NCBI GenBank assembly: GCA_937997955.1
Contig: CALLDR010000202.1
Location: forward strand, 2,413-66,412
Source: an uncultured Emergencia sp.
Lineage (GTDB): Bacteria; Bacillota; Clostridia; Peptostreptococcales; Anaerovoracaceae
DNA length: 64,000 nucleotides
Reading direction: 5' to 3'
Position numbers and translations under genes: made by a program. The notes beneath the pieces were generated by a model that was not told the DNA's origin, made no database searches, and saw nothing but the letters and a program-made list of their open reading frames with translations. This document shows positions 32,196-49,261 of the stretch, in pieces; position 1 is the first letter of the stretch; each line of letters opens with the position of its first letter.

Positions 32196-32890
32196 CCAGC
32201 CACGCGTCAAACGCGTGGTTTTCAATTGACGGGCATAGCCCTCTATTCCTCGCGGACACGTCAAACGTGTAAAAAGAAATCTGCCAGCTGCGGGTGCTAT
32301 AACTTACTTTCTCTTTTGCTTAAACGGACCGACTTCGCTCATCGTCAGCTGCTTTCACAGCTGGTCTTCTTCAAGCTGTTTCTTTATGTACTCCGCAATT
32401 CTGGCTTCATTTTTTCCTACGGTATCAACATAATACCCCCTTGCACCAAAACTCACGGTTCCTGTATTTATACTTCAGCCCGCCGAATTGCTCGTACAGC
32501 ATTGTGCTGCTCTTCCCCTTGAGATATCCCATGAACTTGGAAACTGCATATTTAGGCGGTATTTCTACCAACATGTGGATATGATCAGGGCACACTTCCG
32601 CGGCAACGATATGCACGCCTTTCCATTCGCAAAGCTGTCTTAAAATCTGGCCAATTGCTTTCTTATGCTCCCCATAAAATGCTTTCCTTCTGTACTTTGG
32701 GGCGAAAACAATGTGATACTTGCAATTCCACTTGGAATGCGATAAACTGTTAATGTCATTCATGCTCATGAATGTCCTCCTTCTCTTTTTTTGATTGCAG
32801 CTGGCAGACCGCATTCCAAGTATAGCAGAAGGAGTTTTTCTGTTCAACGGTGAAACCTTTTTGGAACCACGCGTCAAACGCGTGGTTTTA
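32196..32890 (-). mobile_element. IS200/IS605-family insertion sequence (IS200/IS1541-like), decayed
   Basis: A Y1-transposase gene is flanked by two identical hairpins CCACGCGT-caa-ACGCGTGG (32200-32218 and 32867-32885). A related hairpin ACACGT-caa-ACGTGT lies at 32256-32270. The overall size is about 0.7 kb. Confidence 0.85.
32304..32769 (-). pseudogene. tnpA: IS200-type Y1 transposase TnpA, inactivated (+1 frameshift and in-frame TGA)
   Basis: MSMNDINSLSHSKWNCKYHIVFAPKYRR...HIHMLVEIPPK...YRNREFWCKG matches IS1541-like TnpA. The frame is lost at a G5 run (plus C5 at 32436-32440). With one G removed it continues YYVDTVGKNEARIAEYIKKQLEEDQL, then TGA, then KQLTMSEVGPFKQKRK. Confidence 0.85.
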
Positions 32891-32896
32891 CTTATA

Positions 32897-32928
32897 CAAG
32901 AAAACCTGCCGGCATTTCTGTCGACAGG
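32897..32928 (-). terminator. Putative terminator of hydABC operon 1
   Basis: The minus strand reads CCTGTCG-10 nt-CGGCAGG followed by TTTTCTTG, about 25 nt after the hydA stop. Confidence 0.6.
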
Positions 32929-32953
32929 CTCTCCCAAAATATATGTCACTATA

Positions 32954-34711
32954 TTATCTTGCTTTATAGTGGGTATGCAGCAGGTGATGTGCCTTTTCGC
33001 TGCCCGGCTCGCCAAGGTATGTCTTGTACAGCTCCTTGATGACCGGATTCTTGTGAGACTTTCTGATGAAATTCTCATGGTCGCTCTTGTAGAGGGCTTT
33101 GGCTCTCTCGTTGCCCAGGTTCATCCAGTTGCGCACGGATGACGGCTGCTGCGGCTGTCCTCCGCCGTTGACGCAGCCTCCCGGGCAGGCCATGATTTCC
33201 ACGAAATCAAAGTGCTCGCCGCCTTTGATGCGCTCCATCAGCGCTCTGGCGTTTCCAAGACCGTGGGCCGCGGCCGCTTTGACGGTCACATCTCCGATCT
33301 TGATCTCGGCTTCCTTGATGCCCTGCTCCTGTCCGCGAACCTGCATATAGTCGATGGAATCGGAGCTCTCTCCGGTGACGATATCCGCCACGGTACGCAG
33401 AGCCGCTTCCATAACGCCGCCGGTGGCACCGAAGATGGTAGCAGCGCCGGTGGAGATGCCCAGCGGATGATCAAAGTCGCTGTCAGGCAGCGCCGGGAAG
33501 TCGATACCGAAGGCCTGAATCGCCTTTGCCAGCTCTCTGGTCGTCAGCACCAGATCCACATCTTGATAGCCAGTAGCCGCCAGTTCCTCTCTCTGCGCCT
33601 CGAACTTCTTCGCCGTGCAAGGCATGACGGAGATCACGATGATGTCCGCAGGGTCCAGCCCTTCCTTCTCAGCGTAATAGGTCTTGATCATGGCGCCCAG
33701 CATTTCGTGCGGTGATTTGCAGGACGAAAGGTTATCCAGCATATCCGGGAAGAAGTGCTCGCAGAACTTGATCCAGCCCGGTGAGCAGGACGTGATCAAA
33801 GGCAGATTCTCGCCGGTCTTCAGGCGGTGCAGAAGCTCGGTTCCCTCTTCCATGATGGTCAGGTCCGCGCCGGTATCGGTGTCAAAGACCTTGGCAAAGC
33901 CGATCATGCGCAGGGCTGTTACCATCTTTCCGGTTACGTCGGTGCCGAACGGCATGCCGAACTCTTCTCCCAGAGCCGCTCTGACCGCAGGGGCGGTCTG
34001 GACGACGATGTGCTTTCCAGGCAGCTTCATCAGAGCCCAAAGCTCGTCGAGGCTGGAGTGTTCCTGCAGGGCGCCGGTCGGACAGACGTTGATGCACTGG
34101 CCGCAGTTGACGCACTTTGATTCGTCGATCGGACGGTTAAAGGTGGTGCCTACCACGGTGCTGAAGCCTCTGTTGATGACGTCGATGGCTCCTACTGTCT
34201 GCACGTTATGGCAGACGCTGATACATCTTCTGCACAAAATACATCTGTTCGGGTCTCTCATGATGGAGATGCCGTTGTCTATTGCCATGACCTGGTTGGC
34301 TGTAACCACTTCCTGGTTCTTGGCGTAGTTGGCGAACTCGGTGTCCATGGTGTTGGCCAGGGTCTTCAGCTCGCAGCCTGTGGAACCTCTGTTGCAGCTC
34401 TGACACATGGCCGGATGGTTGGACAGTATCAGCTCCAGGTTCTTCTTTCTAAAGTTGAGGATGTCAGGGGTGTGGGTTTTGACCACCATGCCCTCGGCAA
34501 CCTTCTGCACACAGGAGGCCTGCCAGTTCTTCGCGCCTTCCACTTCTACCAGACACATACGGCAGCAGCCGATCTCGCAGACGTCCTTCAGGAAGCAAAG
34601 GGTCGGAATCTTGATGTTGACTTCTTTTGCTGCCTGTAATATGGTGTAATCCTCTGGCACGTTAACGTCCATGCCATCTATGGTTAACTGTACTCTTTTC
34701 TTATTCTTCAT
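32954..34711 (-). CDS. hydA: [FeFe]-hydrogenase catalytic subunit (HydA, trimeric NuoE/NuoF-associated type) with variant H-cluster motif
   Basis: N-terminal 2Fe-2S, His-ligated and 2x[4Fe-4S] domains, then an H-domain with MPCTAKKFE and EIMACPGGCVNGGGQP. Motif 1 reads TSCSPGW rather than TSCCPxW. Confidence 0.9.
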   Translation of the reverse strand: MKNKKRVQLTIDGMDVNVPEDYTILQAAKEVNIKIPTLCFLKDVCEIGCCRMCLVEVEGAKNWQASCVQKVAEGMVVKTHTPDILNFRKKNLELILSNHPAMCQSCNRGSTGCELKTLANTMDTEFANYAKNQEVVTANQVMAIDNGISIMRDPNRCILCRRCISVCHNVQTVGAIDVINRGFSTVVGTTFNRPIDESKCVNCGQCINVCPTGALQEHSSLDELWALMKLPGKHIVVQTAPAVRAALGEEFGMPFGTDVTGKMVTALRMIGFAKVFDTDTGADLTIMEEGTELLHRLKTGENLPLITSCSPGWIKFCEHFFPDMLDNLSSCKSPHEMLGAMIKTYYAEKEGLDPADIIVISVMPCTAKKFEAQREELAATGYQDVDLVLTTRELAKAIQAFGIDFPALPDSDFDHPLGISTGAATIFGATGGVMEAALRTVADIVTGESSDSIDYMQVRGQEQGIKEAEIKIGDVTVKAAAAHGLGNARALMERIKGGEHFDFVEIMACPGGCVNGGGQPQQPSSVRNWMNLGNERAKALYKSDHENFIRKSHKNPVIKELYKTYLGEPGSEKAHHLLHTHYKAR

Positions 34712-37063: not shown

Positions 37064-37118
37064 GTTTCTCTCCTTCAATAAATTTAGAATATAGTGACTT
37101 TTGTTAATAGTTTAACCA

Positions 37119-37147
37119 ATTGTAACACAAAAAGTTTGAAGTATCAA
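37119..37147 (-). promoter_or_regulatory. Putative sigma-70 promoter of hydCBA operon 1
   Basis: The minus strand reads TTGATA-17 nt-(TGt)TACAAT, about 55 nt upstream of the start. Confidence 0.6.
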
Positions 37148-37343
37148 CTATTAGTTTGATTTTCGACAAATTTTTTAACGAATTAAATTGTTTTTTGTTT
37201 CGTGCATCAAAAAATAACCGGCATAATTCGTTTTTTTGTACAAACTAGGTTTTCCGCTCCCTTTGTCCCGGAAAAGGCATAGGAAGAAACATGGAAAAAC
37301 ATAGAAGAGGCGCAGAAAAAGCATGGAAGAAACACAGAAAAAG

Positions 37344-37379
37344 CAGAGCCCTGTTCCCGGCGTTTCCGCCTGAAACAGG
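37344..37379 (-). terminator. Hairpin terminator of the ABC exporter operon; copy A of a dispersed 36-nt hairpin repeat
   Basis: CAGAGCCCTGTTCCCGGCGTTTCCGCCTGAAACAGG. On the minus strand the hairpin is followed by GCTCTGCTTTTT. A near-identical copy lies at 45035-45070. Confidence 0.7.
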
Positions 37380-37442
37380 ATCCTGCTCCGCTGTCAATAA
37401 AGCCGGCCCAACCGTATTCATTTCTTCCGGATCAAAGCTCCG

Positions 37443-39206
37443 TCACTGCCGCAGCCTCCATCCGATGGCCGCTTCTCTCTGTCTCCAGAACCTGCGGTAG
37501 ATGCCATCTTCCTGTATCAGCTTGCTGTGGGTTCCCAGCTGTACGATCCGCCCTCCATCTACGACCGCGATCTGCTCCGCGTCCCGCACGGTGGTCAGAC
37601 GATGGGCGATGGAGATCAGCGTCTTTTCCCTGGTCAGCTCTTTGATGGCCGCCAGCAGCTGATGCTCGTTTTCCGGGTCTACGCTGGAAGTAGCCTCGTC
37701 CAGTATGACGATAGGCGCGTCTTTTAGGATAGCCCTGGCGATGGAAATCCTCTGCTTTTCTCCGCCGGACAGGGTGGAGCCGCCCTCCCCTACCACAGTG
37801 GCATAGCCCTCCGGCAGAGCTGAGATGAAATCGTGGCACTGGGCGCGCCGGGCCGCCTCCACGATCTCCTCGTGGGTCGCGTCAGGATTTCCAAACCGGA
37901 TATTGTTCTCAATGGTATCGTTGAAGAGATAGACGTTCTGGAAGACCATGCTGATGTATCCCATCAAGCTGTCTGCTGTGTAATCCTTCACGTCCAGACC
38001 TCCGATCAGGACCTGTCCCTCCTGCACGTCCCAGAATCTGGCGATCAGATTGCACAGGGTAGTCTTGCCTGAGCCGGACGGTCCTACGATGGCGCAGGTC
38101 GTCCCCTGCGGCACCCGCAGAGACACGTCGTCGATGATTTTCCTGCCGCCGGTTCCCGCTTCCCCGTCCTTTCCCGCCGCGTCATAGGAAAAGGTCACGT
38201 GCTTCAGCTCGATATCAAAGTTTTTCGGAGCCATGGCCTGTCTGCTGGTATCCATCTCCGGCATATCCGTGACAGCTTCCAGCCGGTTCAGCTCCGTGAT
38301 GATCTTTCTGGCCAGAAAAGCGCCGTCCCCCATCTGCTCCATCTCAGAATAGACGATGAAGGAGCAGACGATAAACATCAGGCAGTAGGACAGCGACAGC
38401 TCACCATCTAGAAACATGGCCGCCGCCGTGAACATCATGACACAGCCGGTCACCTTGTAGACAGCCTGGTAGACCTTCAGAAGGGGCAGAGACGCGTACT
38501 CCTGGTCCAGGTCTGCCTGCCGCTTTTGTTCAAAGGCCTCATAGACGGCGTTTTCGCTGCCGCCGCCCTGCGAAAACGCCCGGAGCACCGAGATCCCCCG
38601 TATGTATTCCAGAGCCTGGATGGTCATATTTTCCTGGGCCGCCAGCACCTTCGGCGTATGCTTTGCCGCCGCCTTCTGGATCACGTGGAGCACCGCCATG
38701 CCGGCGCACAGGCCCACAAGGGTGATCAGGGCGAAGACCGGCGCGAAGAACAGGAAGTAGACCATCATGACCAGAGTCATCAGCACGCCGCCGGTCAGAT
38801 CTGTCACCGCCAGCATGGAGTACTGCTCCAGTTCCGTCACCGTGGACGTCAGCACCGTCTGGATACTCCCCAGCTTCTGTTCGGAGAAATACCCCATGGG
38901 CGCTTTCCGCATCCGCTCCCCGATCTGCAGTCTGTAATCCCGGAACATATCAAAGCCCTTTGCGCTCATGGAGATGTCCATGAGCCACTGAAACAGGAAA
39001 CGCCCCGCCACGCTGACGACGAGAACGCCAAGGGCTTTCCAGATCACGGAGAAAGTCAGGTGATCCAGATTTTCCACTACGATATAGATAGCGAAGATCA
39101 TCAGACCCATGGAAACCGTCTTTAAAAAGTTCAGGAAAATACCCAAGATGATCTTCGTCCTATGCCGTCCCGACAGTTCCAAAATCCGCCTCAACATATT
39201 CAGCAT
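37443..39206 (-). CDS. ABC exporter, fused permease/ATPase (type I exporter, multidrug/lipid-like)
   Basis: Six-TM domain plus an NBD (GPSGSGKTT, LSGGEKQR, ILDEATS). Overlaps the upstream partner gene. Confidence 0.9.
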   Translation of the reverse strand: MLNMLRRILELSGRHRTKIILGIFLNFLKTVSMGLMIFAIYIVVENLDHLTFSVIWKALGVLVVSVAGRFLFQWLMDISMSAKGFDMFRDYRLQIGERMRKAPMGYFSEQKLGSIQTVLTSTVTELEQYSMLAVTDLTGGVLMTLVMMVYFLFFAPVFALITLVGLCAGMAVLHVIQKAAAKHTPKVLAAQENMTIQALEYIRGISVLRAFSQGGGSENAVYEAFEQKRQADLDQEYASLPLLKVYQAVYKVTGCVMMFTAAAMFLDGELSLSYCLMFIVCSFIVYSEMEQMGDGAFLARKIITELNRLEAVTDMPEMDTSRQAMAPKNFDIELKHVTFSYDAAGKDGEAGTGGRKIIDDVSLRVPQGTTCAIVGPSGSGKTTLCNLIARFWDVQEGQVLIGGLDVKDYTADSLMGYISMVFQNVYLFNDTIENNIRFGNPDATHEEIVEAARRAQCHDFISALPEGYATVVGEGGSTLSGGEKQRISIARAILKDAPIVILDEATSSVDPENEHQLLAAIKELTREKTLISIAHRLTTVRDAEQIAVVDGGRIVQLGTHSKLIQEDGIYRRFWRQREAAIGWRLRQ

Positions 39207-40966
39207 ACACCTTCACTCCCTTCTCCTGTACGATCCGCCGCGCCGACGTGCTGCTCCCACATCCTCCGATACAGCGGGCAATCCCGCAGCAGCTGCTCCT
39301 GGGTGCCGCTGGCGGCGATCCTTCCCTGATCCACGACCAAAATCTGATGGGCGTTCTGAATGGTGGCCAGCCGGTGGGCTACGACGACCAGCGTCTTTCC
39401 CTGTACCAGCCTGCTGACCGCTTCCTGAATCTGCGCTTCACTCTCTGGATCAGCAAAGGCTGTAGCCTCATCTAAAATAACCATGGACGCGCCCTTCAAA
39501 ATGGCCCTGGCGATGGTAATCCTCTGCCGTTCTCCGCCGGACAGCCGGTCGCCCGCGTCTCCCGCCGGCGTGTCGTAGCCCTGAGGAAGCTGCAGGATAA
39601 AGTCGTGGCAATTGGCGGCTTTCGCGGCAGCCTCTACCTCCTCGTCTGTCGCTTTTGGCTTTCCCATGCGGATATTCTCCGCGATGGACTTGTCGAAGAG
39701 AAAATTATCCTGAGCCACGTAGCTGATCTCTCCCATCATCTGATCAAAGGGGATCTGGCGGATATCCCTGCCGCCGTAATAGACGGTTCCTCCATCGGCG
39801 TCCCAAAAACCCGCCATCAGCTTGGCGATAGTGGATTTTCCCGAGCCGGACGGGCCTACGATGGCCGTCATGGTCCCCGGTTTCGTTTCAAAGCTGATGC
39901 CGTGCAGCACCTCCTTTGATCCGTTATAGGAAAAATGTACGTCGTCGAAAACGTACGCGCTGCCGTCAAGCTCCGCCTCCTCCGACGGCCGCTCCTGCTC
40001 CGGCGTATCCAGAAACTCCCGGATCGGCTTCAGATTGGCCGCGATGGTGGTCAGCTGCTCACTGCCGAAGGCGAGCTTCATCAAGGGCCCGATAAATCCG
40101 ATGGGTATGACGATGCAGGCCACGAAAATCGGCAGGCTGATCTTCCCGTTCATCAAAAGCCATGCGCCAACCGGCAGACTTCCCAGAAAGGTAGACGGAA
40201 TGATGGCCTTGACCGCCGCCATCCAGAACCAGCACTGCCGCCACCAATCCAGCGTACTGTCGTGAAAAAAGTTGACCGCGTCAGAAAACTTGCCGAAGGA
40301 CGCTCCCGTCCTGCCAAAGGCTTTGATAACCTGAATACCGCCGACGTATTCCACCAAGGCTCCGTTCATCTCGTTGCCCGCCCGCAGATACGTGGCCATT
40401 TTCTCTCCATAGCCCTGCATCATGCCGATGATAAAGGGAATGGACAGAGGCAGGGTGATCAGGGAAGCCAGCCCCATGCGCCAGTCCAGCACGAAGATCA
40501 AAAGGATACAGGCCAGCGGCGCGGCAATCTGGGAAGGGGCCTCCGGCACCACGTGGGCGATGGAATCCTCCAGCTTCCCCACGTTGTCTACCATCAGGGT
40601 CTTGTGGACGCCGGAAGGTGTCTCCAGCATGACGCCCAGGGGAACCCGCTGCATTTTATCGGCGACAGCTCTCCGCATGTTCTTCAGTATGGTAAAGGCG
40701 ATGCTGTGGCTTCTGGCCGACGACAGAGTGCAGAGCACCGCACGCAGCACGATGCCAAGGGCTGCGCCTCCCGACCACAGCAGGGCCTGTTTCATGCTGG
40801 CCGTTCCCGCGTAAATCCCGTTGGCGAGAGCCGCCGCTGCCAGAAACGGCAGCATCCCGAAGCACTCCCCAACGATAGCCAGAAAGACAGCGAGGGGCAT
40901 CTTCCCCTTGGCCTCACCGGCAAAGCTGAACAGAACCCTGATCGGATTCTCTCGTTTTTCCTTCAT
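39200..40966 (-). CDS. ABC exporter, fused permease/ATPase (heterodimer partner)
   Basis: NBD with GPSGSGKST, LSGGERQR and ILDEATA. The start is set at ATG 40966, which follows GAGGAGG. The 42-codon ORF-track extension is translated purine-rich repeat DNA. Confidence 0.88.
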   Translation of the reverse strand: MKEKRENPIRVLFSFAGEAKGKMPLAVFLAIVGECFGMLPFLAAAALANGIYAGTASMKQALLWSGGAALGIVLRAVLCTLSSARSHSIAFTILKNMRRAVADKMQRVPLGVMLETPSGVHKTLMVDNVGKLEDSIAHVVPEAPSQIAAPLACILLIFVLDWRMGLASLITLPLSIPFIIGMMQGYGEKMATYLRAGNEMNGALVEYVGGIQVIKAFGRTGASFGKFSDAVNFFHDSTLDWWRQCWFWMAAVKAIIPSTFLGSLPVGAWLLMNGKISLPIFVACIVIPIGFIGPLMKLAFGSEQLTTIAANLKPIREFLDTPEQERPSEEAELDGSAYVFDDVHFSYNGSKEVLHGISFETKPGTMTAIVGPSGSGKSTIAKLMAGFWDADGGTVYYGGRDIRQIPFDQMMGEISYVAQDNFLFDKSIAENIRMGKPKATDEEVEAAAKAANCHDFILQLPQGYDTPAGDAGDRLSGGERQRITIARAILKGASMVILDEATAFADPESEAQIQEAVSRLVQGKTLVVVAHRLATIQNAHQILVVDQGRIAASGTQEQLLRDCPLYRRMWEQHVGAADRTGEGSEGVC

Positions 40967-41050
40967 TTCATTCCTCCTCTTCTCTTCCTTGTTTCTCTTC
41001 TTCATGTCTCGCTCTCTCATTTTCGCGCCCTCATTCTTCTCCATCACACT

Positions 41051-41173
41051 TCTGCCTTTTGCCTTTTGTTCCGCCTTGCTTCTTCGCCGCATTTCTCTTT
41101 TCGCCTTTTGTTCCCCCTTGCTTCTTCACGATTCTCTTCTTTGCCTTTTGTTCCACCCCGTTCTTCTTCGAGT
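41051..41173. repeat. Three imperfect tandem repeats with a period of about 41 nt
   Basis: The core GCCTTTTGTTCCnCC(TT/CC)G(C/T)TTCTTC occurs at 41061, 41103 and 41143. The region is purine-rich on the coding strand, between the tetR stop and the ABC start. Confidence 0.85.
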
Positions 41174-41230
41174 ACCGCTTCTTTAGAGCGGGTTAGTTTA
41201 GCCTAACCACACTCCCAGAAAATAGGGCTG

Positions 41231-41845
41231 CTACAGCCCTAAGACAGCCCTCCATCCGGAACAGAAAAAATCCTGAAAGGTCTTCATATAGTGCACCGCG
41301 TCCTCCATGGGAAAATCGTGAACGACCACCTCAAAGAGAGCCGTCACATAAGCGCTCATCAGCAGATGCATCTCTTCCTCCCGCATCTCCTTCACCTCGA
41401 TGCCCTTTTTCTTGGCAGCCTCCATAAAGGCGATGGTCTCCCGCTGTTCCAGCAGAACCAGCTGATGGAGATAATCGGCATAGCGTGTTCCCTCGGAACG
41501 GCAGATCAGCAGCTTAAACGCGTCAAAATTAGGATAGACCACATTGACGATCAGCCCGGTATCCGCTCCGCTCTCCCACATCTGATCCAGATCATTCCGC
41601 TCCAGCATCTCATAGTCGAAGTCCTTATGTGCCTGATACCACTCCTCCACCGCCGTCAGCGCCGGCTCCACCAGAGCCGTAAACAGTGCCTCCTTGTCAG
41701 CGAAGTGTCGATAGAGGCCGGCGGCGCTCATACCCACCTTTCCCGCGATGCTCCGCATGGAAGCCTGTTCAAAACCCTTTTCCAGAAATTCTTCCCTGGC
41801 CGCGGGCAGAATCCTCTCATATGTTTCCGTTTTACTCTTTGGCAT
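41231..41845 (-). CDS. TetR/AcrR-family transcriptional regulator
   Basis: N-terminal HTH (GFEQASMRSIAGKVGMSAAGLYRHFADKEALF); 204 aa; upstream of the ABC exporter pair. Confidence 0.9.
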   Translation of the reverse strand: MPKSKTETYERILPAAREEFLEKGFEQASMRSIAGKVGMSAAGLYRHFADKEALFTALVEPALTAVEEWYQAHKDFDYEMLERNDLDQMWESGADTGLIVNVVYPNFDAFKLLICRSEGTRYADYLHQLVLLEQRETIAFMEAAKKKGIEVKEMREEEMHLLMSAYVTALFEVVVHDFPMEDAVHYMKTFQDFFCSGWRAVLGL

Positions 41846-41976
41846 ACTTCCTCCTCTTTACGCACGATGTCGGCTGTCCGCATCAACTGGCGATATTGGC
41901 AAATGATATCAGCGAGCGGCGTTTGCAATTGATATCAGCGAGCGGCATCAGCGAATGGCGTGAGTAAACGTTATGA

Positions 41977-42004
41977 GTAAACACCGTTAGCTAACATCGT
42001 TTAC
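41977..42004. promoter_or_regulatory. Palindrome, candidate TetR operator
   Basis: GTAAAC-acc-GTTAGCTAAC-atc-GTTTAC: a perfect 10-bp core palindrome nested in a 6-bp outer inverted repeat, about 130 bp upstream of tetR. Confidence 0.35.
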
Positions 42005-42419
42005 ATTATACAATGCGATTTACATCACGTCAAGGGTTATTTCCATCAAAGCGAGGCCGCCGGGGGTTCATTCGGGCAGGCAGCGACACAGCAGTTCCAT
42101 CAAAGTTGGGCTAAATCCCCTGATTTTCTGCAAAAAGCCTAACCCCAGGCTGCGGCAGTGGCTGTGGGGGCTGTGGCAGTAATTGCGGCAGTGGCTGTTG
42201 TGGTGCAGCTGAACCACATAAGAACCATCGACCAAATCGGGCTTATGAACTTGCGTTGCAATAGAAACCGGCTTCCTGCTTGGCTCTGCTTAAATATGCT
42301 CGTCCCATCTTTAAAACAAAAGGCGGAACCTCTGCTTCCGTTTCGGTTTCAAGGGCACGCCCTGATTTCGGGCGATGGTTTTTCAATCGTATCCGATGAT
42401 GTTCTCAGGTATGATATAG

Positions 42420-42460
42420 AAAAAAGCCACCGCATCAGAATTTTCTCTGACCGCGATGGC
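42420..42460 (-). terminator. Putative terminator of the LRR surface-protein gene
   Basis: An imperfect 13-bp hairpin GCCATCGCGGTCAG/CTGATGCGGTGGC followed by TTTTTT on the minus strand, directly after the stop. Confidence 0.6.
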
Positions 42461-42467
42461 TTTCGCA

Positions 42468-44678
42468 CTATTTAGCAGTTCTCCAGGCTTTCAAGGAATA
42501 TTCAGTATAAATCTTCTTTCTATCGATCACCTTGTAACCGCGAACTTTATAATAGTATTTATTGCCTTTTTTGACAGCGGTATTGAAATACCGTTCCTTT
42601 GTCGTCTTGAAAATCGGAGTCTTTCCGTAGCCGCTGTTCCTCTTCAAGGACCGGTATACCTCATAACCGTCAAAATCCAGTTCGCTGCCGTCTTTGTTGA
42701 ACCAGTAAACCTTGATGGATTTCTTTCCGCTCGGCGCTGTGGCGTACATACTGCGCGCGACCAGTCTGGTATTCTTCACAGCCTCGATCAAAGCGGCGTT
42801 GTCATCAGGCGCTTCCATCTTCCTCGCGGTGACAACCACCTTATCACCGGTCTTCAGTCCGGTCAGAGTGGTGACAGCTCCCTTCGACACGCCGTTGACC
42901 GTTACGTCTGCCAGTTCATAGCCGTCGTCAACGGTGATAGTCGCAATCGTGCCGGTGCTGTTCAGCGTGACAGTTGCGCCTTCTGAAGCTTCAATCGTCG
43001 GTTTCTGTGGACTGGAGACAGATGGGAAGGAACTGTTGGAGCCGCTTGTAACGTCAACCACACAGGAAACGGTCTTCAATACGATGTCCCCTATTTTTGC
43101 TGTAACGGTAATTGTTGCACTGCCTTGAGCGACACCTGTAACAACACCATTTTCAACCTTCGCAACGTTTGCATCACTGGTCGACCATTCGAGCGCAACA
43201 GCTTCTGGTATATCTGCTAACGACAAGTTAAGCGAAGCTCCAATATTCACGCGGCTTGTCTGCGGAAGTTCTAGTCCAGCAACCTGACTGCTGTCAGAAT
43301 CAAGTTTAGCAATACCAGAAAAGGCCCCCTCTCCAACTGTCTTTACCGTAGATGGAATTGTAACGGAGGTCACATTGGAACAGCCCGCAAAGGCGCGTTC
43401 GCCTATTTCCGTCACGCCTTCCGGAATGACCAGACTCGTCAATCCTGTATTGCCTACAAAAGCTTCAGTTCCAATTTTCTCCAGGGTTGTTGGGAAGGTA
43501 ATAGATTTCAAAGTATCATCGGTGGTGCCTCCAGGGGATACTTTGAACGCGCTGTCTCCGATGTATTTGATACCTTTAGGCACGGTGACGTTTTCCTGGA
43601 TTTCCAGGGTATTCATTAAGGTATCCTCGTCATAGAGGACGCCGTCCTGAATCTGGTATACACTTTCTTCTTTGAAGAATACATTTCCTTCACCGTCATT
43701 TGCGGAGCTGTTATAATATGAATTGAATGTGCCCGGTTCGATCACTGTATTCGCAGGGACGGTAACACTAGGCAGGGAGGTGCAGTACGCAAAGGCAGAA
43801 GGACCGATATAGGTTACAGAATCCGGCACGTTCAGCTCTGTTAAACCACTGCACCGCGCAAAAGTAAATCTGCTTATCGTTTCCAGCTTGCTGTTCTCCG
43901 CAAAGGTCACATTCTGGAGTTTAGACCCGGAAAAGCTCTCGCCGTCCCATTCTCCATTACCGATCGCCGTCACCGACGCAGGAATCGTAATGGAGGTAAT
44001 AGCGCAGTTGCTAAAAGCACGAGGGCCAACAGTAGTAAACGCTTCGCTGTTGGAAGGCATGGTCACCGAAGTAACCTGAGTATTTTTAAACGCGCTATCA
44101 TCAATCCCTATGACAGTGTACGATTTATTTTCATACGTTACTTCCGCCGGAATTGTTTTGGCTCCCGTATAAGCATAACGATAAGATGTATTACCATAGC
44201 CGTTTTGTCCTCTTTCATAGTAAGGCGCCACCATGACTGTGTCGTTATCTTTAATCTCATAGGCCAGACCGCTCTGTTCATCGTAGAAATCATAAAACTG
44301 CGTTTGCCATTCCCATTGGAATTCGTTAGGATCAGGTTTGGTGCTTCCACCATTTCCCGAATCCAATTCTTCTTTCTTCTCCTCAATTATTACTGACTTT
44401 TCATCGAAAGCTCCGAAAATCGCCAACTGTTCATCTGTAATGTTATCCCACGATGATTGTTCAAAAGTATCAAGCTGCGCAATGATTGGAGCATACCTAT
44501 CATTATAGAATGTCAGGAACTCCTCGTCCTCCATAGCTTCGATTTCTTCTGCTGTTGGAAATTTTGAAAGCTGTTGAAAGAATTCATCAAATGTCATACT
44601 CTCCGCTGCCCACGCCATGCCCGGCATAAAGCACACGATCATCACTACGCACAGCAGCGATATTAAAATTTTTTTCAC
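42468..44678 (-). CDS. Secreted BspA-type leucine-rich-repeat surface protein with Ig-like (Big_2) and FN3-like C-terminal domains
   Basis: Signal peptide MKKILISLLCVVMIVCFMPGMAWA (GTG start). Repeated LRR_5-type units (AFxxCxxLTSVTIPxSVTxIG). Big_2-like ATITVTAK segment. No LPXTG motif. Confidence 0.85.
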   Translation of the reverse strand: MKKILISLLCVVMIVCFMPGMAWAAESMTFDEFFQQLSKFPTAEEIEAMEDEEFLTFYNDRYAPIIAQLDTFEQSSWDNITDEQLAIFGAFDEKSVIIEEKKEELDSGNGGSTKPDPNEFQWEWQTQFYDFYDEQSGLAYEIKDNDTVMVAPYYERGQNGYGNTSYRYAYTGAKTIPAEVTYENKSYTVIGIDDSAFKNTQVTSVTMPSNSEAFTTVGPRAFSNCAITSITIPASVTAIGNGEWDGESFSGSKLQNVTFAENSKLETISRFTFARCSGLTELNVPDSVTYIGPSAFAYCTSLPSVTVPANTVIEPGTFNSYYNSSANDGEGNVFFKEESVYQIQDGVLYDEDTLMNTLEIQENVTVPKGIKYIGDSAFKVSPGGTTDDTLKSITFPTTLEKIGTEAFVGNTGLTSLVIPEGVTEIGERAFAGCSNVTSVTIPSTVKTVGEGAFSGIAKLDSDSSQVAGLELPQTSRVNIGASLNLSLADIPEAVALEWSTSDANVAKVENGVVTGVAQGSATITVTAKIGDIVLKTVSCVVDVTSGSNSSFPSVSSPQKPTIEASEGATVTLNSTGTIATITVDDGYELADVTVNGVSKGAVTTLTGLKTGDKVVVTARKMEAPDDNAALIEAVKNTRLVARSMYATAPSGKKSIKVYWFNKDGSELDFDGYEVYRSLKRNSGYGKTPIFKTTKERYFNTAVKKGNKYYYKVRGYKVIDRKKIYTEYSLKAWRTAK

Positions 44679-44731
44679 GTTCTTTTATCTCCTTTCGTAA
44701 TTATAATAGGTCCCCTTGTTGAACGCTAAAT

Positions 44732-44885
44732 TAGACTTTTTCGTTCGGATATATTATAATAAAAAGGGACATATCCCCTATGCCACTTATCCGCTGTTAA
44801 CGTTGAAATTCAGCACTTTCTTAGTTTACAATCGCCTATGATTTCTGGTAATTATTACCTGAAATCCTGTGAACGAAAAAGTCTA
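44732..44885. promoter_or_regulatory. Candidate invertible DNA switch: perfect 15-bp inverted repeats flanking a 124-bp promoter-bearing segment
   Basis: TAGACTTTTTCGTTC (44732-44746) and its exact reverse complement GAACGAAAAAGTCTA (44871-44885). The internal plus-strand promoter TTGAAA (44803)-18 nt-TACAAT (44827) currently points away from the LRR gene. Confidence 0.5.
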
Positions 44886-44980
44886 CTTTTTCCTTCACAT
44901 TCCCCAAGTTCTCCGCATAAAAGCATCGCGCCATCTCCGCAAATTCCCGCAAATTAAAAATTCGGACCGATTGCCGGAAT

Positions 44981-45009
44981 TTGCACATAAAAATAAACTT
45001 GTCTATAAT
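44981..45009 (+). promoter_or_regulatory. Orphan near-consensus sigma-70 promoter with no plus-strand gene downstream
   Basis: TTGCAC-17 nt-TATAAT. It faces two hairpins and then the 3' end of hydA operon 2, in antisense. Confidence 0.5.
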
Positions 45010-45034
45010 GAGCTCGCCCTTAACACCACAACAA

Positions 45035-45075
45035 CAGAGCCCTGTTCCCGGCGTATCCGCCAGAAACAGGGCTCT
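45035..45075 (-). terminator. Hairpin after hydA (operon 2); copy B of the dispersed 36-nt hairpin repeat
   Basis: CAGAGCCCTGTTCCCGGCGTATCCGCCAGAAACAGGGCTCT is 34/36 identical to copy A. A second hairpin GACTGAC-agcag-GTCAGTC lies at 45089-45107. Confidence 0.6.
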
Positions 45076-45119
45076 TCTGCAAACGGCTGACTGACAGCAG
45101 GTCAGTCCGCCGCTCCTAT

Positions 45120-46814
45120 CTATTTTTCATTATGCAGCAGCTTGTGTTCTTTTCCTTTCAGGATACCGTCGTACAGGCTCAGGGCCACCGGGTTCTGCCC
45201 GGAGGACTTGATCTGGGAACGGCTGTCGAAACGGTACAGACCGTTCTGCCGCGCCACCTTTGTCTCGTTTTCCAGGCCCAGGCCCACAGGCTGGCCGCCG
45301 CCGTTGACGCAGCCGTAGCGGCAGGTCATGACCTCTACGAAGTCGTAGTGAACCTCACCGGCTTCGATCTGGTCGAGCACCTTTGCAGCGTTGCCCAGTC
45401 CGTTGATCACCGCGATGCGCACCTCTCTTCCGTTGAGGTCCACGACGGCCTCTTTGACCGCGTCGTTGCCGCGGACGCCGGAAAATTTGATCTCGTCCAT
45501 ATCGCTGGACTTGGTGCTGTTCTTCAGATAACGCAGCGCCGCTTCTGTCACGCCGCCGGTGGTTCCGAAAATAGCGCCGGCGCCGGAGGACATACCGAAC
45601 GGCATATCCAGCGCTTCCGGAGTGATATCGGCCAGGTCGATGCCGGCCATTTTGATCATATCCGCCATCTCAGTAGTGGTCAGAACATAGTCCACGTTCT
45701 GTTCGCCGTCGGTGTAGTGCTCCGGACGCAGGATCTCCGCCTTCTTCGCGGTGCAAGGCATGATGGAAACCACCACGGTCCGTCTGCCGTCCTTTTCCTT
45801 GTTCATTCTGGCTTCTTCCTTGATCAGAGCGCCGAACATCTGCTGCGGGCTGCGGCAGGTGGAAATATTCTTGGCGAACTGCGGATACCTGTCCTCGCAG
45901 AACTTGACCCACGCAGGACAGCAGGAGGTAAACAGAGGCAGGTTGTCTCCCGCTTCCAGCCTCTCTACCAGCTCGTTGGCCTCTTCGATGATGGTCAGGT
46001 CCGCGCCGAAATCGGTATCATAAACCTCTTCAAAGCCCATGTAGCGCATGGCTGCCACCAGATGCCCCAGGGCGTTGGTGCCCTTTTCCAGATCAAAAGA
46101 GTCGCCTATGGCCACGCGGACCGCCGGAGCGATCTGCGCTACGACGCGGACGTCTTTGTCCTCCAAAAGCTCCCATACCGGGTTGATATCCTGATTGATG
46201 GTGATGGCGCCAGTCGGACATACCACGCGGCACTGTCCGCAGCCGACGCAGTTGGTATCGGCCAGATCCCGCTTAAACGGCGTCGTGATCATCATCTTTG
46301 AGCCTCTCCGCGCGAAACCGAGAACGCCTACGCCTTCGATCTCATGGCAGACCCGCACGCAGTCTCCGCAGAGAATGCATTTGTTCAGGTCTCTGACCAC
46401 ACACGGAGATGTACGGTCCAGAGGGAACCGCTCTTTGTAGTTGTCAAATCTGACTTCCCGCACGCCCAGACGCTTGGACAGCTCCTGCAGGTTGCAGATG
46501 CCGTTGGCCGGCGCGCAGGTGGTGCAGTCTCTGCAGTGGGCCGCCAGCAGCAGCTCTATGATCATCTTTCTGTGATGCTGCAGTCTGCGGGTGTTGGTGT
46601 AGATCACCATGCCGTCCCGCGGCCGTTCGGAACAGGACGCGAAGACCTTTCCCTTTTCATCTTCCACCACGCACAGGCGGCACGCGCCGAACGTTGAAAG
46701 CTCAGAATGATAGCAGAAGGTCGGCAAATCGATGCCCGCATTCCGGATGACCGCCAGGACGTTCTTCTCATCAGTAAATTCCACTTTTCTGTTGTTGATT
46801 GTCATATATCCCAT
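45120..46814 (-). CDS. hydA: [FeFe]-hydrogenase catalytic subunit (HydA, trimeric type), canonical H-cluster motifs
   Basis: TSCCPAW, MPCTAKKAE and EVMTCRYGCVNGGGQP, with N-terminal 2Fe-2S, His-ligated and 2x[4Fe-4S] domains. The start is set at ATG 46814, which follows AGGAGG-N7. Confidence 0.92.
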   Translation of the reverse strand: MGYMTINNRKVEFTDEKNVLAVIRNAGIDLPTFCYHSELSTFGACRLCVVEDEKGKVFASCSERPRDGMVIYTNTRRLQHHRKMIIELLLAAHCRDCTTCAPANGICNLQELSKRLGVREVRFDNYKERFPLDRTSPCVVRDLNKCILCGDCVRVCHEIEGVGVLGFARRGSKMMITTPFKRDLADTNCVGCGQCRVVCPTGAITINQDINPVWELLEDKDVRVVAQIAPAVRVAIGDSFDLEKGTNALGHLVAAMRYMGFEEVYDTDFGADLTIIEEANELVERLEAGDNLPLFTSCCPAWVKFCEDRYPQFAKNISTCRSPQQMFGALIKEEARMNKEKDGRRTVVVSIMPCTAKKAEILRPEHYTDGEQNVDYVLTTTEMADMIKMAGIDLADITPEALDMPFGMSSGAGAIFGTTGGVTEAALRYLKNSTKSSDMDEIKFSGVRGNDAVKEAVVDLNGREVRIAVINGLGNAAKVLDQIEAGEVHYDFVEVMTCRYGCVNGGGQPVGLGLENETKVARQNGLYRFDSRSQIKSSGQNPVALSLYDGILKGKEHKLLHNEK

Positions 46815-46825
46815 AACGCTTCCTC

Positions 46826-48709
46826 CTACCATTCAATGTGTATCGCATCAAAAGCGCAGTCGGACAGACATGCACCGCACTTGATACAGGTGTTAAAATC
46901 GATTTCATAGGCCTTGCGAAGCTGCCCTTTGATAGCGTGAGCAGGACAGTTTCTCGCGCACTTGGAACAGCCTCTGCACTTATCCGGATTGATGACGAAC
47001 TTGCGCAGGGCTTCACAGTTGCGGGACGGACAGCGCTTTTCTACCACGTGCTGTTCGTATTCCTCCCGGAAGAACTTCAGGGTGCTCATGACAGGCTGCG
47101 CCGCGCACTTGCCCAGGCCGCACAGGGCCGTGTCCGTAATGGTCTGCGACAGCTCCTCCAATACGTCCAGGTCCTCAAGCTCTCCTTTGCCGCTGACGAT
47201 CCGCTCCAGGATTTCCAGCATTCTCTTGGTGCCCTCCCGGCACGGCACACACTTGCCGCAGCTCTCGTTCTGCGTGAAGTTCATGAAGAAGCGGGCCACC
47301 TCTACCATGCAGGTATTGTCGTCCATGACTACCATGCCGCCGGAGCCGATCATGGCGCCGATCTTCTTCAGGGAATCAAAGTCCAGCTTCATGTCCAGAT
47401 GCTGCTCGGTCAGACAGCCGCCGGACGGTCCGCCGATCTGCACTGCCTTGAAAGCGCGGTCGTTTTTGATGCCGCCGCCGATCTCAAAGATGACTTCCCG
47501 CAGGGTCGTGCCCATCGGCACCTCGATGAGGCCGGTGTGCTTCACGCTGCCGGTCAGGGCAAAGGCCTTTGTTCCCGCGTTCTTGTCCGTACCGATGCTC
47601 TTGAACCAGTCCGCGCCCTGTTCGATGATCATCGGCACGTTGGCGTAGGTTTCTACGTTGTTCAGCACGGTCGGCTTATCAAAGAGGCCCTGCTCCACGG
47701 TTCTCGGCGGTTTTACCCTCGGCATGCCCCGGTTTCCTTCGATGGAGGCGGTCAGAGCGCTGCCTTCGCCGCAGACAAAGGCGCCCGCGCCCCGGCTGAT
47801 ATGTAAGCGGAAGCTGAAGCCGGTTCCCAGGATATTGTCACCCAGCAGGCCCCATTCCTCCGCCTGGGCGATGGCGTTTTTCAGACGGCTGATGGCCAGA
47901 GGGTATTCAGCCCGGACGTAGATGTAGCCCTCGTCGGCGCCGACCGCGTAGGCGGCCAGAGCCATGCCCTCGATCATCTTGTGCGGGTCGCCTTCCATGA
48001 TACTTCTGTCCATGAAAGCGCCCGGATCGCCTTCGTCGCCATTACAGACAACGTACCGCTTCTTCTCTTTCTGTCCCGCTACCTGGCTCCACTTCTTGCC
48101 GGTAGGGAAACCCGCGCCGCCTCTGCCGCGAAGGCCGGAATCGGCTACGACGTCGATGACCTCCTGCGGGGTCATTTCAAAGAGGGCCTTTGCCAGGGAC
48201 TGATACCCTCCGATGGCTATGTACTCCTGAATATGCTCCGCGTCGATGTGTCCGCAGTTTTTCAGCACGTTACGGGTCTGCTTTTTGTAAAAGCTGATCT
48301 CCTCCTGCTTTGGCTTCTCCACGCCGTTTTCCTTGAACAGCAGTCTCGGGATCAGATGTCCGTTTTTGATGGTTCTCTCGAAGATTTCTTCGCAGTCCTC
48401 TTCTTTGACCTTGGTATACAGGACGCCGTGAGGCTCGATGCGCATCAGCGGTCCCATTTCGCAGAAGCCGTGACAGCCGCTCTTTCTCACCGCGATGCCT
48501 TCGCCGTGGGCGATCTCCTCGCCGAAGTGCACCTCAACCTCTGGGTGCAGCTCTGCCAGCTGGCACATCTTTTCATATATTTCGCCTGAACCGCCGGCCA
48601 TACAGCCGGTACCGGCACAGATTAAAACTCTGCATTTACTGCTCTCGATCTCTCGTTCAAAGTCTTTGCGCGCCGCTTCAAGAGATGCTCTGTCTTTCAT
48701 TTTCTCCAT
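46826..48709 (-). CDS. hydB: NuoF-like FMN/NAD(H)-binding hydrogenase subunit (HydB)
   Basis: GRGGAGFPTGKKW, ESCGKCVPCR, an N-terminal 2Fe-2S domain and a C-terminal 2x[4Fe-4S] domain. Confidence 0.92.
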   Translation of the reverse strand: MEKMKDRASLEAARKDFEREIESSKCRVLICAGTGCMAGGSGEIYEKMCQLAELHPEVEVHFGEEIAHGEGIAVRKSGCHGFCEMGPLMRIEPHGVLYTKVKEEDCEEIFERTIKNGHLIPRLLFKENGVEKPKQEEISFYKKQTRNVLKNCGHIDAEHIQEYIAIGGYQSLAKALFEMTPQEVIDVVADSGLRGRGGAGFPTGKKWSQVAGQKEKKRYVVCNGDEGDPGAFMDRSIMEGDPHKMIEGMALAAYAVGADEGYIYVRAEYPLAISRLKNAIAQAEEWGLLGDNILGTGFSFRLHISRGAGAFVCGEGSALTASIEGNRGMPRVKPPRTVEQGLFDKPTVLNNVETYANVPMIIEQGADWFKSIGTDKNAGTKAFALTGSVKHTGLIEVPMGTTLREVIFEIGGGIKNDRAFKAVQIGGPSGGCLTEQHLDMKLDFDSLKKIGAMIGSGGMVVMDDNTCMVEVARFFMNFTQNESCGKCVPCREGTKRMLEILERIVSGKGELEDLDVLEELSQTITDTALCGLGKCAAQPVMSTLKFFREEYEQHVVEKRCPSRNCEALRKFVINPDKCRGCSKCARNCPAHAIKGQLRKAYEIDFNTCIKCGACLSDCAFDAIHIEW

Positions 48710-48713
48710 ACTC

Positions 48714-49190
48714 TTACGCTCCTCTCAACTCGTTGATCAATGCGATGGCTGACTCCGGCGTCATGGTCGGATATACTTTGTCGTTGACGGTCAGCACTGG
48801 CGCTAACCCGCAGGCGCCCAGGCAGGATACCGTCTCCAGCGTAAACATCATGTCCTCTGTGGTATGCTGTTCATGGGAAAGTCCAAGCTCCGCATAAAGG
48901 GCTTCCAGAATCGGAATGGATTTGCGCACATGACAGGCAGTGCCGTCACAGACTTTGATCAGATATTTTCCCTTTGGCTCAAAGGAAAAGTTCTCATAAA
49001 AAGTCGCTACACTGTAGGCCTGGGACTCTGGGATATGCAGCTTCTTTGCCACATAGCTCAAAAGTTCCGGCGGAAGGTAGCGATATTCTTCCTGAATCTC
49101 CTGAATGATCGGGATCAGATCGGCTTGAGTACGCCCATGACAGGCAATAATCTCATCCGCTTTGTCATAATATTCTTTTTCCAGCATCAT
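48714..49190 (-). CDS. hydC: NuoE-like [2Fe-2S] hydrogenase subunit (HydC)
   Basis: VCDGTACHVRKS and CLGACGLAP motifs. The start was trimmed to ATGATG (49190/49187) by alignment with the paralogue at 36578. Confidence 0.85.
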   Translation of the reverse strand: MMLEKEYYDKADEIIACHGRTQADLIPIIQEIQEEYRYLPPELLSYVAKKLHIPESQAYSVATFYENFSFEPKGKYLIKVCDGTACHVRKSIPILEALYAELGLSHEQHTTEDMMFTLETVSCLGACGLAPVLTVNDKVYPTMTPESAIALINELRGA

Positions 49191-49261
49191 ACACCTTGTA
49201 TCGCTGCCGCTGGGCCGGCGATACGCTCCTTTCCTCAATTTGCTAGTCACTCTTTCTCCAT

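Follow-up and report, generated by a model that had tools for sequence, protein, structure and literature searches.

Serine at the first [4Fe-4S]H ligand site of a HydABC-type [FeFe] hydrogenase from an uncultured Emergencia species

A HydABC-type operon and its paralogue

Within the window, the whole stretch of 64,000 nucleotides analysed here, an uncultured Emergencia species of the family Anaerovoracaceae carries a compact hydC-hydB-hydA operon, encoded on one strand with spacers of 12 nt and 18 nt and ending with hydA (Table 1). The hydA product passes the NCBIfam model NF040763 (NADH-dependent [FeFe] hydrogenase, group A6) with 874.8 bits against a cut-off of 765, as well as TIGR02512 with 536.6 bits against 405.95 over profile positions 1-374 of 375, and has the M3 architecture of N-terminal 2Fe-2S and 4Fe-4S domains plus the H-domain. 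The NuoF-like hydB product has a 2Fe-2S ferredoxin-like part at its N terminus (fdxn_Clost, residues 40-116) and a 2x[4Fe-4S] ferredoxin part at its C terminus (FdxA_fam, residues 556-606; both NCBIfam), extra parts that are typical of bifurcating enzymes, and its best PDB match is HydB of Acetobacterium woodii (7q4v_B, 911.1 bits). With HydA accompanied by a NuoF-like HydB and a NuoE-like HydC, the gene set is that of HydABC (HydDB group A3 type).

A second, paralogous hydC-hydB-hydA operon, not part of the Ser-type enzyme, lies in the same window. Its HydA finds its best PDB match in Thermoanaerobacter kivui HydA1 (8a6t_A, 521 bits) and reaches 690.5 bits on NF040763, below the cut-off of 765. 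As the earlier note on this DNA had reported, its translation reads TSCCPAW and aligns without gaps with the corresponding motif of the first hydA, the two proteins being 39% identical overall (BLASTP). The draft genome (212 contigs, 97% complete) contains four [FeFe] hydrogenase homologues in all: the Ser-type HydA, the TSCCPAW HydA, a TSCCPGW enzyme on another contig and a shorter SSCCPAF enzyme. The TSCCPGW enzyme, of about the length of CpI, adjoins a frame of ~1176 aa that weakly matches the beginning of the H-domain profile (66 bits), and the 485-aa SSCCPAF homologue has an L3 motif, CMGGCVGGSG, that is group B/C-like. The genome also encodes the maturase HydG (927.9 bits against a cut-off of 312), and a frame of 371 aa just upstream gives a weak radical-SAM match, with 57 bits on the model of HydG.

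A distance of 12.1 kb separates the two L1 motifs of the window, compared with 4.3-4.6 kb in six other relatives. In Anaerovoracaceae bacterium 42-11 (L013), a close relative, the operons are tandem, the Cys-type hydA ending ~530 nt before the Ser-type hydC (L013:1612-2142). The extra ~8 kb between the operons of the window holds two ABC exporter genes, a TetR regulator and an LRR surface protein, and looks like an insertion. Directly downstream of hydA is an IS200-like Y1 transposase, whose long frame overlaps the 3' end of hydA; its true start is probably further in, and the element itself is taken as lying outside the hydA ORF.

Table 1. Features of the hydrogenase locus, with related genes elsewhere in the genome
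Feature	Position	Strand	Evidence
hydA, HydABC-type [FeFe] hydrogenase catalytic subunit, 585 aa	32954..34711	-	translation; NCBIfam
L1 H-cluster motif, T307-S-C309-S310-P-G-W	33773..33793	-	translation; gapless alignment to CpI and A. woodii
Ser310 codon TCA, position of CpI Cys300 ([4Fe-4S]H ligand)	33782..33784	-	phmmer alignment
L2 motif, MPCTAKKFE; Cys365 = CpI Cys355, Lys368 = CpI Lys358	33599..33625	-	
L3 motif, EIMACPGGCVNGGGQP; Cys509 = CpI Cys499, Cys513 = bridging CpI Cys503	33152..33199	-	
hydB, NuoF-like flavoprotein subunit, 611 aa	34730..36565	-	NCBIfam nuoF_fam, 513 bits
hydC, NuoE-like 2Fe-2S subunit, 166 aa	36578..37078	-	NCBIfam nuoE_fam, 148.8 bits (cut-off 142.4)
IS200-like Y1 transposase	32425-33078	-	Pfam PF01797, 111 bits, residues 116-214
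Extra block between the operons	37079-45119		
ABC exporter gene	37443-39206		
ABC exporter gene	39200-41092		
TetR regulator	41231-41845		
LRR surface protein	42468-44678		
Second, paralogous hydC-hydB-hydA operon	45120..49250	-	
Paralogue hydA, LPLFTSCCPAW, T302 at 45929, motif 45909-45929	45120-46832	-	
485-aa SSCCPAF homologue, outside the window	G000:C163:34192-35646	-	
TSCCPGW enzyme, outside the window	G000:C169:15770-17542	+	

The residue replaced in the L1 motif

The hydA ORF is intact over its 585 codons. Its translation around L1 is NLPLITSCSPGWIKFCE, and the L1 stretch with Thr307, Cys309 and Ser310 reads ENLPLITSCSPGWIKFCEHF. On the minus strand the letters from 33793 to 33773 are ACG TCC TGC TCA CCG GGC TGG, preceded by ctg cct ttg atc, with the T307 codon at 33793-33791. 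The earlier note had read these codons as TSCSPGW and had described motifs 2 and 3 as intact, and both statements agree with the letters and with the translation of the whole ORF, in which L2 and L3 are complete.

The register of the motif was set by a phmmer search of the hydA product against all PDB chains, in which CpI, the monomeric group A1 enzyme of Clostridium pasteurianum, aligned over its full length with 485 bits. Two consecutive gapless blocks of 102 residues (211-312 on CpI 201-302 and 313-414 on CpI 303-404) keep a constant offset of 10, and in this HMMER alignment of query 211-414 with CpI 201-404 Cys309 falls on CpI Cys299 and Ser310 on CpI Cys300. We take Cys299 of CpI to be the proton-relay residue and Cys300 to be a ligand of the [4Fe-4S] subcluster. 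The register is regarded as unambiguous, being gapless at 45-53% identity, and it bears out the proposal in the earlier note that the substituted position is the cluster ligand rather than the relay cysteine that is altered in sensory types.

Cys365, Cys509 and Cys513 are the equivalents of CpI Cys355, Cys499 and Cys503. Thus, the pattern of four cysteine ligands to the H-cluster (TSCCPxW, MPCxxKxxE, ExMxCxxGCxxGGGQ) is kept at three of its four positions, the L1 ligand position being occupied by Ser310. The proton-transfer pathway of CpI runs through C299, E279, S319, E282 and R286, with further pocket residues including M353, M497 and K358. All of the CpI pathway and pocket residues checked are kept in the hydA product (E279, E282, R286, S319, C299, K358, M353, M497, C355, C499 and C503), and its own pathway residues, C309, E289, S329, E292 and R296, are all conserved. 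The hydA product therefore shares the H-cluster and proton-pathway residues of CpI except for the ligand Cys300, whereas CpI as a whole differs from the HydABC described here in being monomeric and ferredoxin-dependent, in having Cys300 and in lacking NuoE/NuoF partners. With serine at the CpI Cys300 position and the relay cysteine and the other three cysteines kept, the protein is a Ser-type HydA. Serine at the L1 ligand site is a natural variant accepted in the literature and does not exclude membership of group A.

The L1 motif also deviates in the sensory [FeFe] hydrogenases (HydS, groups C and D), but there both the relay cysteine (CpI Cys299) and the pocket methionines have given way to other residues, and the protein carries a PAS domain. 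We reject a sensory enzyme here: the hydA product has Cys309, Met363 and Met507, and no PAS domain is listed in the precomputed Pfam domains of its closest homologues or among the NCBIfam hits.

Serine in A. woodii HydA1 and across relatives

Among all PDB chains, the best match of the hydA product in the phmmer search is HydA1 of A. woodii (7q4v_A, 660.7 bits; also 7Q4W and 8A5E), to which it is about 53% identical (BLASTP). The A. woodii chain reads LPMITSCSPGWIKF, and its local ITSCSPGWIKF, numbered TSC300S301PGW, is identical to that of the hydA product, with Ser301 there corresponding to Ser310 here. The likeness extends to the complex as a whole (7Q4V, 7Q4W, 8A5E), including the M3 architecture of HydA (585 aa here and 583 aa there) and the same operon partners, a HydB that matches with 911 bits and a NuoE-like HydC. 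The organisms differ in that A. woodii is an H2-consuming acetogen of the Eubacteriaceae, whereas the host here, of the Anaerovoracaceae, is probably an H2-producing fermenter. The HydABC complexes of T. kivui (8A6T) and Thermotoga maritima (7P5H) have the same three-subunit bifurcating architecture, with HydA matches of 565 and 414 bits; however, the ligand in T. kivui HydA1 is the cysteine of a canonical TSCCP, and it is the second operon of the window, with TSCCPAW, that resembles T. kivui more closely.

In A. woodii HydA1, Ser301, described as the A1-cluster ligand, takes the place of the cysteine ligand of [4Fe-4S]H (Katsyv et al., JACS 2023, PMC10021017). The complex is an active bifurcating hydrogenase with normal catalytic activity and H/D exchange, the serine ligand is without effect on the FTIR signature, and the activities of Ser-type and Cys-type HydABC complexes are similar (PMC10021017). 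The A. woodii maps are from cryo-EM, in which the oxygen-iron bonding is modelled and not spectroscopically proven. About 20% of putative hydrogenase sequences have serine at the L1 ligand site (Kertess et al., Chem Sci 2017, PMC5855289), and the trimeric hydrogenases of Melainabacteria were described as having "TSCSPGW rather than TSCCPAW" (Di Rienzi et al., eLife 2013, PMC3787301). The Melainabacteria paper was the sole relevant match when the TSCSP motif was looked for in the literature, and wording on serine ligation or replacement returned nothing more specific. Thus, the variant is not new, since A. woodii HydA1 has the same TSCSPGW in an active enzyme and about 20% of sequences have serine at the site. 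The unusualness that the earlier note implied does not hold up; the note itself had named a widespread variant characterised as active as grounds for abandoning that view. Serine at this site has been reported before, is documented by a structure and occurs commonly, and the feature is real but ordinary.

Introduced at the equivalent ligand position of the Chlamydomonas enzyme, a change from cysteine to serine has a different outcome: the engineered C115S variant of CrHydA1 loses most of its [4Fe-4S] cluster and all activity, in contrast to the natural Ser-type HydA of A. woodii, which is active (PMC5855289; PMC10021017). Kertess et al. called the natural serine surprising because their C115S variant was inactive (PMC5855289). 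Since the algal variant lost its activity, tolerance of serine depends on context, and for the hydA product we assume this tolerance by homology.

The precedent also bears on which residue binds the cluster. If Ser310 were not a ligand, Cys309 might shift to the cubane, the canonical proton relay would be lost, and the enzyme would be slow or sensory-like. We consider this very improbable: Ser301 is modelled as the ligand in the structure from A. woodii, whose enzyme shows normal activity and H/D exchange (PMC10021017), and the hydA product retains the equivalents of M353 and M497 and an intact proton pathway, is encoded in a HydCBA operon and has no PAS or other sensory domain.

The earlier note had proposed a survey of orthologues for TSCSP, and the serine proves to be nearly invariant among close relatives. 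In a collection of 5.8 billion proteins, the best 120 clusters to the hydA product (69-97% identity) have TSCSPGW in 118 cases and TSSSPGW in one, the pattern not being found in the remaining one. Their named members belong to Emergencia, Anaerovoracaceae and 'Clostridiales Family XIII', and several of the clusters are annotated as 'NADH-dependent [FeFe] hydrogenase, group A6'. When one genome per species (GTDB) was searched, all of the 80 best loci (51-97% identity) had Cys-Ser at the ligand site, a single locus (L053) escaping the pattern only through masked bases. These loci come from at least four phyla, Bacillota, Thermodesulfobacteriota, Bdellovibrionota and Omnitrophota, and include Anaerovoracaceae, Christensenellales, Oscillospiraceae, Peptococcaceae and others in the Bacillota and Syntrophus buswellii, Desulfomonilia and Syntrophales in the Thermodesulfobacteriota. 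Farther out, 17 of the 140 H-domains closest to the hydA product among 50%-identity cluster representatives (1.84 billion proteins) combine Cys-Ser with retention of the other three cysteines.

All six serine codons are used across the 80 loci (AGC 20, TCA ~17, TCT ~17, TCG 12, AGT 9 and TCC 5), and the serine has therefore been held by selection through extensive synonymous change. Conservation of the residue together with turnover of its synonymous codons is the signature of purifying selection. The codon family follows lineage, with TCN in Anaerovoracaceae (L011-L024) and AGC/AGT in Clostridiaceae MAGs of 58-62% identity (L025-L037, L042, L043).

The same data bear on the idea that the gene is a paralogue in decay, redundant beside three other [FeFe] hydrogenase genes, or that its serine codon is an assembly error. 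The four HydA homologues of the genome, the degraded IS200-like element immediately downstream and the draft state of the assembly in 212 contigs could all be read in this direction, but the ORF is intact, the other motifs are perfect, the curated model is matched with 875 bits, and all 80 related species have the same serine, encoded by varying synonymous codons. This explanation is extremely unlikely and effectively refuted. The earlier note had likewise judged a sequencing error unlikely, and its conclusion stands because the serine codon is found in all relatives from 97% down to 51% identity, but its argument that TGC to TCA needs two base changes does not. The TCA codon alone is no argument against an error because a change from cysteine to serine needs only one base (TGC to TCC), and TCA is one synonymous step from TCC. 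The case against a sequencing error thus rests on the conservation of serine among relatives, the codon itself being weak evidence.

Function of the enzyme and Cys/Ser exchange in evolution

Very probably, the hydA product is the catalytic component of an ordinary and functional [FeFe] hydrogenase of the HydABC type (bifurcating or confurcating), a natural Ser-type enzyme of a Senimuribacter/Emergencia-like member of the Anaerovoracaceae. Directly observed are the gene's sequence, its register against the reference enzymes, its place in the operon, the conservation of the serine and a maturase encoded in the genome. Serine-oxygen ligation, activity and bifurcation are assigned by homology, at about 53% identity to the A. 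woodii enzyme. Among the four residues that ligate the [4Fe-4S] subcluster, the first would be Ser310 instead of a cysteine, with its oxygen bonded to an iron of the cubane as in the A. woodii cryo-EM model. The rest of the H-cluster would be typical; the relay cysteine, the three remaining cysteine ligands and the proton pathway are unchanged. By analogy with A. woodii HydABC, the enzyme would couple H2 with NAD(H) and ferredoxin in a reversible, flavin-based reaction. Its most likely function is that of A. woodii HydABC because of the operon, the HydB and HydA matches and the presence of HydG. In a member of the Anaerovoracaceae that ferments amino acids or sugars, the reaction probably proceeds in the direction of H2 formation, a direction and a cofactor that we infer.

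In annotation, TSCSPGW is not to be treated as the sign of a damaged or unusual H-cluster site: it is the mark of a large natural class of HydABC-type enzymes, one member of which has a solved structure and demonstrated activity. No new principle follows from the locus, although its genome, in which Ser-type and Cys-type HydABC are encoded next to each other, offers a convenient comparison. The novelty that is left is evolutionary and mechanistic, namely that cysteine and serine are freely swapped in HydABC-type scaffolds whereas the swap inactivates the algal enzyme.

The exchange could also be a form of functional tuning, in which oxygen ligation shifts the potential, the protonation or the oxidative robustness of [4Fe-4S]H and the Ser-type enzyme differs from the Cys-type in bias, direction or partner. 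That the genome keeps both types, with the operons directly tandem in close relatives (~530 nt in L013), speaks for such a division, as do the best matches of the Ser type to A. woodii (NAD-linked) and of the Cys type to T. kivui (NADP-linked), the strict retention of serine in the orthologue group through many synonymous changes, and the shifts in catalytic bias that ligand exchanges at other cluster positions cause in CrHydA1 (PMC5855289). On the other hand, the serine ligand has no FTIR effect and activities are similar in Ser-type and Cys-type complexes (Katsyv et al., PMC10021017), and the distribution of the two residues on a tree of 121 H-domains, described below, is near-random (14 changes against 16) and fits a near-neutral exchange better than a specialised adaptive state. 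We therefore regard tuning as possible but unlikely. The main text of the paper on the A. woodii structure gives no NAD versus NADP determinants that could be applied to the two HydB paralogues.

To follow the exchange beyond close relatives, we used a maximum-likelihood tree of 121 diverged H-domains, a quick, single-domain tree with many weak branches on which counts of change are approximate. On the best tree there are 14 changes between cysteine and serine, compared with a mean of 16 for shuffled labels, and at least 6 are forced by well-supported branches alone. Ser forms are interspersed with Cys forms almost randomly among these 121 H-domains, and we reject the Ser type as a monophyletic group; a single origin is not supported. 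In raw counts, Gly312 is enriched with serine (15/17 against 35/104), as are Ala372, Val259 and Ile/Leu/Val in place of Phe at 306. In the search for second-sphere residues that co-vary with serine, supported branches gave 6 phylogenetically independent pairs, a number with which the sign test could not reach significance.

Alongside the preferred reading of an ordinary HydABC, a more speculative idea, which we hold to be doubtful, is that the first [4Fe-4S]H ligand of NuoE/NuoF-associated [FeFe] hydrogenases acts as an evolutionary toggle, its two states differing in cluster potential, catalytic bias or oxidative robustness. HydABC scaffolds would then carry a permissive context, since the same change kills the algal enzyme. 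If this were true, the Ser-type and Cys-type operons that this genome has in tandem would provide naturally paired enzymes for a test. Single-step routes between the TCN and AGY codon families lead through cysteine (TGY) or through threonine, and the cysteine route would fit repeated Cys/Ser exchange on the tree.

Some diverged representatives depart further from the pattern. Three of them have lost the relay cysteine as well (P0173, SSSSPAW; P0177, SSASPAW; P0206, TSYSPGW), and P0206 is also without the L2 and L3 cysteines; the three may be non-catalytic hydrogenase-like proteins. The top match of the representative search, P0124, is a protein of 4122 aa with seven separate H-domain matches (1927 bits) in which the L1 pattern was not found; it may stem from a metagenomic gene call that was mis-assembled or concatenated, or may represent a fusion of several hydrogenases.
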